A DNA stretch of 64,000 bases, taken from Scenedesmus sp. PABB004 (Eukaryota). The notes beneath the pieces are model-generated. The model saw nothing but the letters and a program-made list of their open reading frames with translations, was not told the origin of the DNA and searched no databases. The DNA lies in the NCBI GenBank assembly GCA_014905635.1, contig CM026548.1:186001-250000 (forward strand). The letters run 5' to 3'. The position numbers and the translations under genes were made by a program. Below, one piece after another: positions 1 through 63,400 of the stretch; position 1 is the first letter of the stretch; every line of letters starts with the position of its first letter.

Positions 1-2735
1 CAGCAGCAGGAGCGGCCAGCGGGCCAGCAGGAGCCCCAGCCGCCGCAGCCGCCGCAGCCGGTGCCGACGTGGCGCACGCCTCAGGCGGGCCTCGCGCCCG
101 CGCCCGCGGGCGGCACCGTCGGCGCGTACTCTCAGCGCGAGGACCACCTAATGCGCCAGGAGGCGGCGGGGGACATCGAGTTTGCGTACGTCCTCAACGA
201 CGGCAGCCCCACCAACATGATGCGGTGCGGCGCGGCGGCGCGCGGCGCGGCGCGGCGCGGCGCGGGCGGGGCCCGCCGCGCCCGCGGCGGCGGCCCGCGC
301 GACGCCCGCCTTGACGACGCGCGCGCCCGCGCGCGCGCCCGCCCGCGGCGGGGCAGGCTGATGGGCCTGAAGGGCATCTTCAGCAAGCAGCTGCCCAACA
401 TGCCGCGCGAGTACATCTGCCGCCTGCTGCTCAACCGCCGGCACCGCTCGTGCGCGCTCGTGTCGCGCGGCGGCACCGTGCTCGGCGGCATCACGTGGCG
501 CGTCTTCGCGCAGCAGGTGCGGCGCACCTGCCCGCGGCGCGGCCCCGGCGCGGCGCGCGGCGCGCGGCGCGCGCGTCGGTGCTCGCGCCGCCCCGGCATG
601 CACGCCGGCGCCGCCGGGGCCGCCCCCACACACGCGCACCCCCGCCCCCCCCCCCCACCACCACCACCACCTCCCTCTCCCCGCCGGCCCCGCGCAGGGC
701 TTTGGCGAGATCGCGTTCTGCGCCGTCGCGGCGAGCCAGCAGGTGCGGGGGTTTGGCACGCGGCTGATGAACGCGACCAAGGCCCTCGCGCGCGACGTGG
801 ACGGCCTGCACTTCTTCCTCACCTACGCCGACAACAACGCGGTCGGCTACTTTGCAAAGCAGGCGCGCACGGAGAGGGGACCGCGGCGCGCGGGGAGGAC
901 CACGGCCGCGGCGCGGCGCGGCGCGGGGCGGACCACGGCCGCGGCCGCGGCGCGGCACGCGGCGCGCGCGCGCGCGCGCGCGCGCGCGGCGCAGGGCGTG
1001 TGGGGCGCGGCGGCGCGTGGCGCGGCGGCGCGTCGCGGGGCGCGGCGGCGCGACAGGCCGGCGGCCGCCGCCGCCGCGCGCGCGTGTGGCAGGGCTTTAC
1101 GCGCGAGATCACGCTGCGGCGCGAGGCGTGGCTGGGGTACATCAAGGACTATGACGGCGGCACGCTCATGGAGTGCGTGATCCACCCCAAGGTCCCCTAC
1201 GCCGACCTGGTCAGCCTCTTCAAGGCGAGGCGGACAAGGCGCCGGCGCGGGCGCGCGGCCGGACAGCGCGGGCGCGGGCGCGGGCGGCCGGGCAGCGCGG
1301 CGGGCGGTGTGGCGGGCCTCCGGCGCGCCGCCGGATGCTGACGCGTGCCGTGTGCCGCTGTGCCTGCAGGTCCAGCGGGACTACCTGGACGGCCAGATCC
1401 GGCAGTACAGCAACAGGCGCGGGGAGAGGGGCCGGGCGGGCGCACGCCGCTGGCAGCGCGGGCGCGTCGGCGCCGCCCGTCCGCGTGCCCCCGCGCACGC
1501 CCGCCCGCCCGCCCGCCCGCCGCCGCGCGCAGCCACGTGGTGCACGCCGGCATCGTGCGCGCGCGCCAGCCGCTCGGCCCGCCGCCGCATGCGCGGCACG
1601 CCGACATGGCCGTGCCGCTCGACCCGCTCGCGCTGCCGGGCGTCAAGGAGGCCGGCTGGACGCCGCCGGGGCAGCCCGGGTGCGGCGCGCGCGGCGCCGG
1701 TCGCGGCGCCTTGGTCCGGCGGCGGCGGCGCCGCAGGGGGCGGGGCAGCGGGGCTGCCCCCCCCCCCCACCCACACTCGCCCCGCCCACCCCGCGCCTCT
1801 GCCGTCCAGGTACCGCCTGGTGCTGCGCGACCACAGCGTCGTCGAGCCGACCCCCGCGCACCTGCACACCTACATGGGCGGTGCGCGCCGCCGCTGCGCC
1901 GCGTGTGCCCCGCCGCCTACGCACGCCGCCGCCGCCAACGCGCCGCCGCCGCCGCCGCCGCACACGCACCGCCGCCCGCGCGCTCCGCCGCCGCCGCGCT
2001 TGCCGCCGCCGCGCAGAGCTGCTGTCGCACCTTGTGTCGCTGGACGAGTCGTGGCCGTTCCGCGCGCCGGTCGACCCGGTGGAGGCGCTGGACTACTACG
2101 ACATCATCGCGGGTGCGCGTGGCGGGGGGGGGGGGCTTGTGTGTGTGTGTGTGTGTGTGTGTGTGTGTGTGTGTGTGTGTGTGCGTGTGTGTGTGTGTGT
2201 GTGTGTGTGTGTGTGTGTGTGTGTGTGTGTGTGTGTGTGTGTGTGTGTGTGTGTGTGTGTGTGTGTGTGTGTATGTGTGTGTGTGGTCTTGTGCGGGGGT
2301 GCGGGGGTGCGCGCCGCACCTCAACACCCCTGCCACCCACACTCACACACACCCACACACCCACCCACACACCCACGCCCACCCACGCCCACCCACCCGC
2401 CCACAGACCCGGTCGACCTGAGCCTCATCGGCGCCCGCCTCGGCAGCGGCGCGTACTACGTGAGCCTCGAGATGATCGTCGCTGACGTGCGCAAGATGTG
2501 CGACAACTGCAGGTCCGCACGCGGACGCAAGGGGGGGGGGGCTGTGACGCCGCCGCGTTGCCGTCGCCGCCACCGTTCACGTCGACACTGCGGCCCGCCG
2601 CCACGGCCGCCGCGGCCGCCCGGCCAGGTACTACAACGCGCAGACGACGCCGTACTACGCGTGCGCGGTCAAGGTGCAGGCGGCGCTGGAGGCCTTCCTG
2701 GACCGCACCGTCGTCGACGGCGCCGGCGGCGGCTG
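1..2735 (+). CDS. GCN5: Histone acetyltransferase GCN5 (HAT domain + bromodomain), 5'-partial, at least 10 exons
   Basis: Spliced exons give [81 protein letters not shown] and bromodomain [36 protein letters not shown] 2733-2735. Confidence 0.96.
2139..2285. repeat. (GT)n microsatellite in a GCN5 intron
   Basis: About 70 near-perfect GT units. Confidence 0.98.
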
Positions 2736-60439: not shown

Positions 60440-63400
60440 TCAGGGCATGGTGGCGTTGAGCCCCGCGCCCATGTCGGTGCCGTTGAGCCCCGCGCCCGCG
60501 TCGGTCAGGTTGTTCGCCCCCGCCGCGTCGGCGAGCAGCGCGTCGGCGGCCGCGAGGTCGGCGGGGGGCATGAGCATGGTGTTGGTCATCTGCAGCGCCT
60601 GCGTCGCCGAGGCGACCTGGACCACGTCGTCGGCCGAGGTGAGCCACCTGTTGTTGCTCGGGCCGGCGAGCTCGTTGGTCTGGTTGTACAGGTCGTAGAT
60701 GCTCTGGTTGAGCTCCGGGTTGGCCGGCACGGCGTCAAAGTTGGTCGCGTTGAGGTAGAGCAGCGTGTCGTTGGTCTGGCTCAGCATCGCCTTGCGCAGC
60801 GCCACGAGCTGCGTCGCGTCGGGCTGGCTCGGCGTGTGGCTGCCGAGCAGGAAGAGGATGGCGCTGATGAGCGCGGCGATGACGAGGGTGGCCACCCAGC
60901 CTGGGGTGCAGGCGGGGGTTGTGCGGGCGCGGCGGTTCAGGGGCGGTTCGGGCGGCGGCGCGGCCGGGGCCACGCGGCGCGCGGCGGCGGCGGTCGCGGT
61001 CGCGTCTCACCGAGGAACATCTTGCCGTACAGCGCCCAGTTGAGCGCCTTCCAGCGGCCCTCCGCGATGCCGCCGCCCGCGGTCGCGCCGGTGATGGTGT
61101 GCGTGGTCGAGAGGGGCAGGCCAAACGCGGAGCCGACCGCGATGACAAAGCTGGTCGCGAGCTCCATGCAGAAGCCGCGGCTGGGCGTGATGTGGGTGCA
61201 CTTGACGCCGAGCACGCGCATGATGTTGTAGCCTGGCGGAGGCGGCGCGAGGCGAGGCGGCGGCGGCGGGCGGGGTGAGAGCAAGCGGGTGAGAGCGAGC
61301 GGCGGCGGCGGCCGGCAGCGGCGGCAGCGGCAGCGGCAGCGGCAGCAGCGCGGGCCGGCGGAGCGGGCCGGCGGGGCGGGGCCGCGCACCGTAGGTGGCG
61401 AGGCCGACGACGATGCCGGAGCCGCCGAGCGCCAGAATCCACAGGTACACGTCGCTGCGGGGCCAGGGGCGCGGCGGGGCGGGCGGCGTCGGCGGGCGGG
61501 AGGCTGACGGGCGGCGCGGCGCGGCGGGGCCGCAGCGGCGGAGTCTGCGCGCGGCGGGGGTGCGCGCGGCGGGGGCGCGCGCCTGCTGGAGGAGGGCACG
61601 GCCAAGGTGTTGTACACGACCAGCGCGGCGGCAAAGGAGCCGATCGCGTTGGCTGGCGGCACGCGGCGGCGGGCGGGGCGTGCGTGAGCCGGCGGCGCGG
61701 GCGGGGGCCGCAGGCGCCGCGGGTGCAGCCAGGCCAGCCCGCGCGTGCGGCTGCCGCGGGGTCAAGCTCACCGACGTCGTTGGCGCCGTGGGCGAAGCTC
61801 ATCGCGCAGGCGGAGATGACCTGGAGGACCTTGAACACCTGCTCCGTGCGGGGGTCAAACTTCTCCGCGTCGGCGTGCATCGTCTGCGGCGGAAGCGGTG
61901 GTGGCGCGGCGGGGTCGGCGTCGGCGGCGTCGGCGGCACGCGCGCGCGCGGGCGGGCGCGGGGGAGACCCAAGCGCGCCCGCGCGGCGCGGCGCAGCCCC
62001 GCGCACGCCAAGCCCTCGCGCTCCCCGCACCTGGAGCTTGTCGTCGTCAGCGATGTCATTGTGGATGTCGTGGGTCACGCCCTTGAGCGCGGCGTTCCTG
62101 CGCGGCCGACCGGCGCGCGGCACGCGGTGTCAGCGGCGCGGCCGGCGCGCGGCGCGCACGCCGCGGGCCGCCGCGCCCTGCCCCGCGCGCCGCGCGCCGC
62201 GCCGCGCCTGGCGCGCTTGAAGAAGGCACCGATGCTGCGGTCGGCCGGGTCGACCTCCACGGGGCCCAGCGCCGCGTCGACGCGCTTCTGGAAGGCGTCC
62301 TCCTCCACGTCCTTGTGCCCCGCGCTGCCCTCGCCCTTGGGCAGCGTAGAGTGCTGCTCGTCGTACTCACGCACATACTTGCGCATGACGGGCCAGAGCG
62401 CGAGCGAGCCCAGGATGCCGGCGCCGGCGGCCGCGACGGCCGAGATCCACGCGGCGGTGTTGACGTCAATCTTCACAATGGCGCGCACGCCCTTGGTCTG
62501 CGCGGCGACGCGCGGCGCAGGCGGGCGGGCGCGGGCGCGCTCGGCCGCGGCGGCGCGCAGCGTGCGGCCGGCGTGCGGCGTGCGCCGCGGCGCCTCCTTG
62601 TGCCCCCCGCGGCCGCACGCACCAGGATGAAGAACAGGGAGACAAAGATGGTGGCGAATATGAGGAAGGGCAGCACCCAGAACGCAATCTGCGCGCCGCG
62701 GGGGCCGCCGCGCGGTCGGCGGCCGCGCCGCGACGCAGGAGCCCCAGGCGCGGCGCCGCGACCCGCGCGCGCGCGGCGGCGCGCGCGCGCGCGCGCGGCG
62801 CCGCGCCTTGGTGGAGTTGGCGCGGCGCAGCACGAAGGTGCGGATGACGAGGAAGAAGATCAGGCAGAAGATCGCCGCCGCGGCGGGGGAGAGGAACCAG
62901 GAGATGACGATCGGCACGATGCCGCCGACGTAGGGGAAGTCGGCCTGCGGTTCAGGGCGAGCGGCGGCGCGGGGCGGCGTGCTGAGCGGGCGCGCTGAGC
63001 GGGCGGCGGCGGGCGGGGGCCGCGCGCGCGTGTGCGGGCCTGGCGGCGGCAGCGGGCGCGGCGCGGGCGCACCTTGGGCTCGTACCACACAACCGCACTG
63101 GGGCCGCCAAAGGCCATCGCAAAGCCAATGACACCGCCGATGATGGAGTGCGTGGTCGACACGGGCAGCTCAAAGTAGGTGGCCGTCCTGGCGGGCGGTG
63201 GCGGCGGCGGTGGCGCGCGTCGGCGGCGGGCGCGGCGGCGCCAGGGCGCGTGCCCGCGGGCACACAGCGAGGCACGACGACGAGGCACACAGCGGGCTAG
63301 CGCGCGCGGCACACAGCGGGGGACGGCGGGCGCAGGGAGCGTGCTCACAGGATCCAGATCATGGACGCCGTCTCGGCGGTGAGCATGCCAAACATGAAGA

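Follow-up and report, generated by a model that had tools for sequence, protein, structure and literature searches.

We analysed a 64-kilobase (64-kb) stretch of contig CM026548.1 from Scenedesmus sp. PABB004, hereafter the window, and confirmed that introns beginning with GC instead of GT (GC-AG introns) are abundant in it. The window is intron-rich nuclear DNA with a G+C content of 79% (25483 C and 25129 G), in which about twenty intron-rich genes can be recognised by the rhythm of G+C at third codon positions. In protein searches, the best relatives of the exon peptides were from the chlorophycean green algae Tetradesmus, Scenedesmus, Raphidocelis and Monoraphidium, with 79-91% identity over single exons. 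One database protein, P0070 (491 amino acids), is 100% identical to the window and listed as the genome's own GCN5 protein, so a GCN5 gene model already exists for this genome. No small nuclear RNA (snRNA) or other RNA gene was found within the 64 kb by Rfam matching.

Because GC dinucleotides outnumber GT dinucleotides by 5.7 to 1 in the window (13697 versus 2415), GC donors could be assigned by chance, so we used spliced alignment that does not depend on intron borders. Our purpose-written protein-to-genome aligner applies a fixed penalty per intron, scores in half-bit units, and was run in three modes: unconstrained (any borders), GT/GC-AG, and GT-AG only. Ties in the unconstrained mode were broken by a bonus of 0.01-0.02 for canonical dinucleotides, an amount that cannot shift an alignment. 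Homologues were taken from the protein searches, from bacterial and archaeal genes in a plasmid collection, and from two large records. This gave a homology-supported set of 65 introns in ten conserved genes. A further 56 high-confidence introns form an ab-initio-only set, called by a Viterbi model of coding potential and splice signals with the first 37 verified introns as its training set; the model recovers 36 of these 37, or 32 of 37 under leave-one-gene-out cross-validation.

The homology-supported set comprises 45 GT-AG and 20 GC-AG introns, so that GC donors make up 30.8% (binomial 95% interval 20-43%), and nine of the ten genes have at least one:

Prolidase: 5 of 17 introns with a GC donor (eight homologues)
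GCN5: 3 of 9, the other six being GT-AG (eight homologues, plus P0070 aligned unconstrained)
PHO4: 3 of 11 (spliced alignment with homologues)
BDH: 2 of 4 (bacterial homologues)
Riboflavin synthase: 3 of 4 (homologues)
ADH: 1 of 4, at 52379 (homologues)
Lipoyl synthase (LIP1/LipA): 1 of 5 resolved introns, two more junctions being ambiguous
HPRT: 1 of 4, a near tie with a GT site 15 nucleotides (nt) upstream
Peroxiredoxin A: 1 of 4 (tandem paralogue as query)
Peroxiredoxin B: 0 of 3 (spliced alignment)

The individual GC-AG introns are as follows, with a slash marking the exon-intron border, fractions giving homologues, and "exact" referring to unconstrained alignment unless stated otherwise:

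863..1092, + strand, GCN5, cag/GCGCGCAC..GGCAG; exact with P0070 and 8/8 homologues
1225..1369, + strand, GCN5, aag/GCGAGGCG; exact with P0070; 7/8 in GT/GC-AG mode, 2/8 exact, five more with the same 145-nt length shifted by at most 20 nt
1417..1532, + strand, GCN5, cag/GCGCGGGG; exact with P0070; 5/8 exact, 7/8 in GT/GC-AG mode
7263..7359, − strand (donor 7359), BDH, aag/GCGCGCCG; 3/3 bacterial homologues exact
7587..7688, − strand (donor 7688), BDH, cag/GCGCGCGG; 3/3 bacterial homologues exact
20564..20803, − strand (donor 20803), peroxiredoxin A, aag/GCGCGCCG; exact with the uninterrupted exon of the tandem paralogue, score 100 against 68 in GT-only mode
37816..38044, − strand (donor 38044), lipoyl synthase, aag/GCGCGACA; 2/2 archaeal homologues in GT/GC-AG mode, 1/2 exact, the GT alternative adding 15 nt; moderate support
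50364..50444, + strand, HPRT, cag/GCGAGCGG; chosen by 1/2 homologues and equal in score to GT 50349 for the other, ab initio donor score 5.2; moderate support
52379..52492, + strand, ADH, aag/GCGCGCCC; 2/2 in GT/GC-AG mode, same 114-nt length with a 15-nt shift unconstrained; GT-only mode finds no intron and loses 22 to 27 units
53980..54127, + strand, riboflavin synthase, cag/GCGCGGCG; 3/3 in GT/GC-AG mode, 2/3 exact
54209..54325, + strand, riboflavin synthase, cag/GCGCGGCG; 3/3 exact; Pfam Lum_binding matched to position 46, a split codon, then from 48 across the junction
54456..54564, + strand, riboflavin synthase, cag/GCGCGGCG; exact in both homologues that reach it
55284..55640, + strand, prolidase, aag/GCGCGGCG; 7/8 in GT/GC-AG mode, 5/8 exact
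56219..56396, + strand, prolidase, gag/GCGCGGCG; 8/8 in GT/GC-AG mode, 4/8 exact, the others of the same length but shifted
56522..56703, + strand, prolidase, cag/GCGCGCGC; 8/8 in GT/GC-AG mode, 7/8 exact
57040..57205, + strand, prolidase, cag/GCGCGGCG; 8/8 in GT/GC-AG mode, 7/8 exact
58227..58356, + strand, prolidase, acg/GCGCGGGG, the only one of the 20 GC donors without exonic AG; 7/8 in GT/GC-AG mode, 0/8 exact, 7/8 with the same 130-nt length shifted by 1-4 nt
61455..61582, − strand (donor 61582), PHO4, cag/GCGCGCGC; 8/8 in GT/GC-AG mode, 7/8 exact
62098..62207, − strand (donor 62207), PHO4, cag/GCGCGGCG; 8/8 exact in both modes
62689..62806, − strand (donor 62806), PHO4, aag/GCGCGGCG; 8/8 in GT/GC-AG mode, 6/8 exact

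A first-pass annotation of the window, made by eye, had counted about 26 GC donors among about 130 introns, and the excess holds: the share is 31% in the homology-supported set and 23% overall (28 of 121) when the ab-initio-only introns are added. Spliced alignment recovered the numbers it had given for GCN5, riboflavin synthase, prolidase, BDH and PHO4, as well as its single GC cases in ADH, HPRT, LIP1 and one peroxiredoxin (copy A), those in HPRT and LIP1 with moderate support. The three GCN5 donors that it had named (863, 1225 and 1417) read cag/GC, aag/GC and cag/GC, and the same junctions are obtained from P0070 without any constraint on borders.

Could these junctions be an artefact of the way in which they were found? 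In DNA of 79% G+C some GC is always at hand, as the dinucleotide ratio illustrates, and the real junctions might lie at nearby GT or other borders. Unconstrained alignments, however, fell exactly on GC..AG borders in 73 of 109 homologue-by-intron cases, and 28 more had the right length with a shift of at most 20 nt; for GT..AG borders the corresponding numbers were 161 of 249, with 57 more of the right length but shifted. The two classes therefore behave alike, and the rate expected for a random GC..AG border is only about 1% (0.214 x 0.046). When GT donors alone were allowed, conserved blocks had to be disrupted by indels or skipped exons, and in the seven genes whose GC donors are clearest the mean cost was 202 units in prolidase, 117 in PHO4, 85 in GCN5, 80 in riboflavin synthase, 61 in BDH, 32 in LipA and 25 in ADH; the same restriction was nearly free in two peroxiredoxin alignments without a GC donor. 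We searched 51 internal exons (6013 nt), including their ends, for AGGCG[C/A]G, the 7-base motif common to the GC donors, and found 16 copies, of which 15 are donors and one is an exonic decoy; GGCG[C/A]G without A at position −2 has 22 exonic decoys. The genome's own GCN5 model has the same three GC donors. The proteins of related species, which are derived from transcripts, are contiguous across the junctions, although these are the relatives' data and not RNA from this organism. Pfam searches with 22 single exons were informative for two junctions (riboflavin synthase 54209 and kinase 8965); they gave no family for 10 of the exons and unrelated families only for 3, and Mini-III was unrecognised at exon level.

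The one result on the side of an artefact, besides the abundance of GC, comes from the ab initio model. On the wrong strand it called GC donors in 115 of 224 introns, including 18 of 27 in one spurious chain, so its weak GC calls are to be distrusted. Only 14 wrong-strand introns passed the confidence filter, compared to 119 on the right strand across all gene regions, of which 26 have GC donors. Lowering the prior for GC donors from 30% to 1% still left between 25 and 38 GC calls among 130-136 introns with good flanking exons (25 of 130 at 1%). Taking the alignments and these controls together, we regard an inference artefact as extremely unlikely, and these GC..AG borders are presumably the ones at which the transcripts are spliced.

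Outside the ten verified genes, 8 of the 56 ab-initio-only introns (14%) have GC donors. GC-AG introns that we consider probable are:

8843..8965, − strand (donor 8965), kinase, cag/GCGCGGCC; ab initio, with 38 residues filling the 38 PK_Tyr_Ser-Thr positions between flanking Pfam matches
9469..9576, − strand (donor 9576), kinase, cag/GCGAGCGC..CCTAG; ab initio only, junction in the catalytic-loop region
12361..12452, − strand (donor 12452), kinase, cag/GCGCGGCG; ab initio only, donor score 7.3 and upstream exon just 5.5
13334..13527, − strand (donor 13527), kinase, cag/GCGCGGCG; ab initio only, high confidence
26790..26883, − strand (donor 26883), coiled-coil (CEP131-like) gene, aag/GCGCGGCG; ab initio only, donor score 8.1, with weaker donors at 25822 and 25104
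36691..36802, + strand, Mini-III, cag/GCGAGCCG; ab initio

The first-pass annotation had also listed about four kinase donors, one in CEP131 and Mini-III 36691. The ab initio model called all of them again, with Pfam spacing as additional evidence for 8965, and two bacterial Mini-III proteins (L066 and L067, scores 38-76) are too distant to fix the Mini-III donor, giving 36679 (GC) or GT 36661 as alternatives to 36691.

The GC donors share most of their consensus with the GT donors of the same genes. The consensus is G/GTGCG(C) for GT donors and AG/GCG[C/A]G(G) for GC donors. Among the first 37 introns, G at +3, C or A at +4, and G at +5 are each present in 11 of 11 GC donors, and in 24, 24 and 26 of 26 GT donors, respectively, so a second mode of recognition is unnecessary. 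Where the classes differ is at the end of the exon: 19 of the 20 GC donors follow an exonic AG, compared to 17 of the 45 GT donors (Fisher p = 1e-5). Put the other way around, GC makes up 19 of the 36 donors at AG-ended exons, and 1 of the 29 others. All 20 verified GC donors read GCG[C/A]G. It had been remarked by eye that nearly all GC donors take the form AG/GCGCG or AG/GCGAG, that GT donors tolerate weaker exon ends, and that most introns are nearly pure G/C and poor in U; all three statements agree with our counts. A preference of GC donors for G at +6, present in the first introns (8/11 versus 4/26 in GT donors), faded in the larger set (8/16 versus 11/44, p = 0.11) and we dropped it. 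Minor (U12-type) introns have the donor [A/G]TATCCTT and a branch site resembling TCCTTAAC. None of the 20 GC donors contains TATCC, so they do not match this class; PMC3033335 quotes the motifs ATATCC and CCTTAAC.

The introns have a G+C content of about 85%: C accounts for 47% of 5868 intron bases, G for 37%, T for 9% and A for 7%, C being five times as frequent as T. Towards the 3' end they are C-rich instead of U-rich. GC-AG and GT-AG introns do not differ in G+C content (0.867 versus 0.847, p = 0.24). A branch motif of the form CTRAY is present in the last 70 nt of 8 of 63 introns, compared to 2.3 expected from shuffled sequences; its usual form is CTGAC, CGAC-like sites are frequent, and most verified introns have just 1-5 A residues in this interval.

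Such unusual introns raise the possibility, put forward in the first-pass annotation, that the spliceosome itself is adapted, with changes in the 5' end of U1 snRNA, the ACAGA box of U6 or loop 1 of U5 by which GC donors and G/C-only introns would be recognised as well as GT donors. The donor consensus sequences GTGCGC and GCGCGG are indeed far from GTAAGT at +3, +4 and +6, and with U-rich tracts missing and CTRAY in so few introns, some co-evolution of the machinery is conceivable. What speaks against it is the exonic AG, which a standard U1 with a mismatch at +2 would be predicted to need and an adapted U1 would not. By analogy, too, adaptation seems improbable, because the putative U1 5' end of Aureococcus anophagefferens and Micromonas pusilla, two algae with many GC-AG introns, is reported to match the consensus AUACUUACCUG (PMC3033335). 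We consider an adapted spliceosome quite improbable here.

At the 3' end of the intron the two classes again appeared to differ. G at acceptor position −4, giving a GCAG end, is found in 20 of 20 GC-AG introns and in 22 of 45 GT-AG introns of the homology-supported set (p = 3e-5), but the contrast was not replicated among the 56 ab-initio-only introns (GT 40/48, GC 6/8). It is tempting to speculate that GC-AG introns form a distinct signal class, defined by C at +2 together with G at −4 of the acceptor and an obligatory exonic AG, and that the lineage could be heading towards a donor code with a GC majority like that of Emiliania huxleyi, although we think this unlikely.

The similarity among GC-AG introns, with GCAG at the end of all 20 and the same 8-mer, GCGCGGCG, at the start of 8, would also be expected if they were recently spread introner-like mobile elements that carry a GC donor and a GCAG end, instead of mutated GT introns. 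Introners are known in Micromonas and Aureococcus, and the peroxiredoxin A intron at 20803 is missing from the tandem paralogue. However, when we compared 63 introns all-against-all by blastn, we obtained matches of 76-90% with inconsistent offsets, involving GT and GC introns alike, as low-complexity G/C sequence would give. The 63 introns have no shared register and no common ends beyond the splice motifs, and the GCAG rule is missing in the ab-initio-only set. Two of the GCN5 GC introns, moreover, occupy positions held by GT introns in relatives. As families alignable from end to end were not found among the 63 introns, we rejected an introner origin, which is the least probable of the explanations considered here.

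The evidence from relatives comes from GCN5 homologs in metagenome contigs. Scanning these contigs with a GCN5 exon gave 49 loci. In most of them the reading frame continues beyond the end of the matched exon, so these loci lack an intron matching 863..1092, and the aligned loci have few intron positions in common with the window's GCN5 gene. One locus with 56% G+C (L024) shares six intron positions with the window, and at two of these it has ag/GT where the window has ag/GC (donors 863 and 1225). A second locus, with 55% G+C (L019), has GT at the position of donor 863. Comparison with less GC-rich relatives had been proposed in the first-pass annotation as a way to look for GT-to-GC shifts, and at these positions it returned GT. 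The pattern in the two loci fits a change from T to C at AG-ended donors in a GC-rich lineage, although two loci give no direction. L024 may also have a GC donor of its own, with the strong consensus ag/GCGAGT, at a GCN5 site where the window has no intron (L024:1-4509).

We think it probable that the best explanation is GC-biased mutation or fixation turning T at +2 into C at the AG-ended donors of ordinary U2-type introns. The genome would be under very strong GC-biased pressure of one or the other kind, and the change, presumably in the direction from GT to GC, would survive just at donors whose remaining bases still pair well with U1 snRNA. An AG at the end of the exon would contribute one additional base pair each at −2 and −1, and pairing would continue into the intron with G at +3, C or A at +4, and G at +5. 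With A and T so scarce in the genome, the A at −2 may in effect take over as a signal from the lost T. By this account about half of the AG-ended donors would already have switched to GC, and almost none of the others. Compensation by a stronger consensus outside +2 is supported by the excess of exonic AG, and pairing with U1 is the force that probably provides it.

Several observations weigh against this explanation or limit its reach. If T at +2 were neutral in AG-ended donors, the composition of the introns predicts about 84% C, and we observe 53%, so either T is still under some selection or the process is short of equilibrium. L024 lacks an intron matching the third GCN5 GC intron (1417), and the comparison with relatives covers the other two. 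The GC share is also uneven, at 31% in the conserved enzyme genes compared to 14% in the ab-initio-only introns. In the window's two largest genes, counting high-confidence introns, it is 0 of 8 (a USO1/p115-like gene at 14400-19250, − strand) and 1 of 12 (a gene of about 10 kb and unknown family at 39750-49650, − strand). Such variation among genes is not obviously predicted by a uniform mutational process, although weak detection may explain part of it. Three of the 20 verified donors–LipA 38044, HPRT 50364 and ADH 52379–are supported by two distant homologues each, HPRT as a near tie, and two more LipA junctions (near 39200 and 38950) were excluded from the count because the GC and GT alternatives are ambiguous, being about 10 units apart at each junction with archaeal homologues. 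More generally, every junction is predicted from protein homology or a coding model, and one 64-kb window may be unrepresentative of the genome.

Other GC-rich algae are already known to have an excess of GC-AG introns. Iwata & Gotoh (2011; PMC3033335) give GC-AG shares of 39.6% for Aureococcus anophagefferens, 22.2% for Micromonas pusilla and 7.7% for Chlorella sp., attribute the excess to high genomic G+C, and call its origin "an enigma". The window resembles these cases in being GC-rich algal nuclear DNA with a share in the range of about 10-40%, and two of their three species are green algae. It differs in its G+C content (79% versus 65-70%), in its chlorophycean-like lineage, and in that our count comes from one 64-kb window and not a genome; high G+C combined with at least 10% GC-AG introns, as in high-GC algae, is a description of whole genomes, to which the window contributes 79% G+C and 28 of 121 introns. 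The dependence on exonic AG does not appear in the passages of that paper on which we draw. In pelagophytes, the predicted GC-AG share is about 14-17% in Aureococcus, about 14% in Pelagomonas calceolata and 0.32% in Aureoumbra lagunensis (bioRxiv 10.1101/2024.10.30.620910), tracking genome G+C among relatives as in our GCN5 comparison with L024, but these are stramenopiles with 0.1-0.9 introns per gene, compared to 4-17 in the genes of the window. For a sphaeroplealean alga we found no report of GC-AG frequency in the literature searched; in one sphaeroplealean genome paper (72.4% G+C; PMC7354681) the word "donor" is nowhere in the text and the passages available make no mention of splice sites.

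In Emiliania huxleyi, 56% of 241 curated junctions are GC-AG, 13 junctions having been verified by reverse transcription PCR; the authors hold genome G+C responsible and point out that such genes are mis-predicted by gene finders (PMC4028052). Like the window, E. huxleyi is a GC-rich alga with common GC donors and an acceptor that stays AG. GC is the majority donor there at 65% G+C, however, and a minority (about 23-31%) in the window at 79%, which means that the level of GC donors depends on more than G+C alone; a weak general correlation between the G+C of splice sites and of genomes is reported in PMC7072748. E. huxleyi also pairs its GC majority with pervasive intron retention (PMC4028052), and alternatively spliced genes of human, nematode and Arabidopsis have more than their share of GC donors (PMC2490688). 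The GC donors of the window, whose share varies between genes, might similarly be weak sites kept by selection for regulated intron retention or alternative splicing. We consider this very unlikely, since we saw no sign of regulation in the sequence, the affected genes are housekeeping enzymes, and mutation pressure plus tolerance more simply accounts for both the dependence on AG and the link to genome G+C.

The compensation that we propose has a precedent in the U2-type GC-AG introns of human and other animals (about 1%), where the mismatch to U1 at +2 is offset by a stronger remaining consensus (PMC3167603, PMC2490688); such compensation is described for humans and "lower organisms" (PMC3167603), and in mammals conversions from GT to GC exceed the reverse (PMC2490688). 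The window differs from these in a frequency 20-30 times higher, and in that its compensation comes mainly from the exonic AG, since from +3 to +6 all donors of the window are shifted towards G/C anyway.

A first consequence is practical: gene finders that assume GT-AG borders will mis-build a large share of the genes here, as models restricted to GT lose conserved blocks. The window also adds a very GC-rich data point to the rule of higher GC-AG frequency at higher genomic G+C, and it puts a number on the donor switch: about every second donor after an AG-ended exon, and about one in thirty of the others. Mutation pressure combined with U1 pairing would offer a testable model for the "enigma" of GC-AG-rich algae, while leaving unchanged what is known of how GC-AG introns are spliced.

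Some introns of the window have further features. The three riboflavin synthase GC-AG introns (53980, 54209 and 54456, + strand) share identical first 11 bases, cag/GCGCGGCG, and all end in GCGCAG. The two 2-Cys peroxiredoxin genes lie in tandem on the − strand, at about 19650-20890 (copy A) and 21190-22180 (copy B). The GC-AG intron in the N-terminal part of copy A (20564-20803) is missing from copy B, where the exon 22053-22182 runs on uninterrupted, and it was therefore gained or lost after the duplication. The GCN5 intron with the lowest G+C among the introns seen (62%; 2113-2406, 294 nt, + strand) is filled by a (GT)n microsatellite of about 150 nt (2131-2285) followed by a CA/CCCA-rich stretch. 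Finally, the motif AACCCTAAACCC, which resembles a telomere repeat, is present in two prolidase introns (56135-56146 and 57693-57704, + strand), with near matches at 56102 and 38140, the latter a copy in a lipoyl synthase intron with one mismatch. Shuffled sequences predict no match of this type, compared to the four observed; the sites are among the few A-rich spots of the introns, and two of them lie within about 20 nt of an acceptor.

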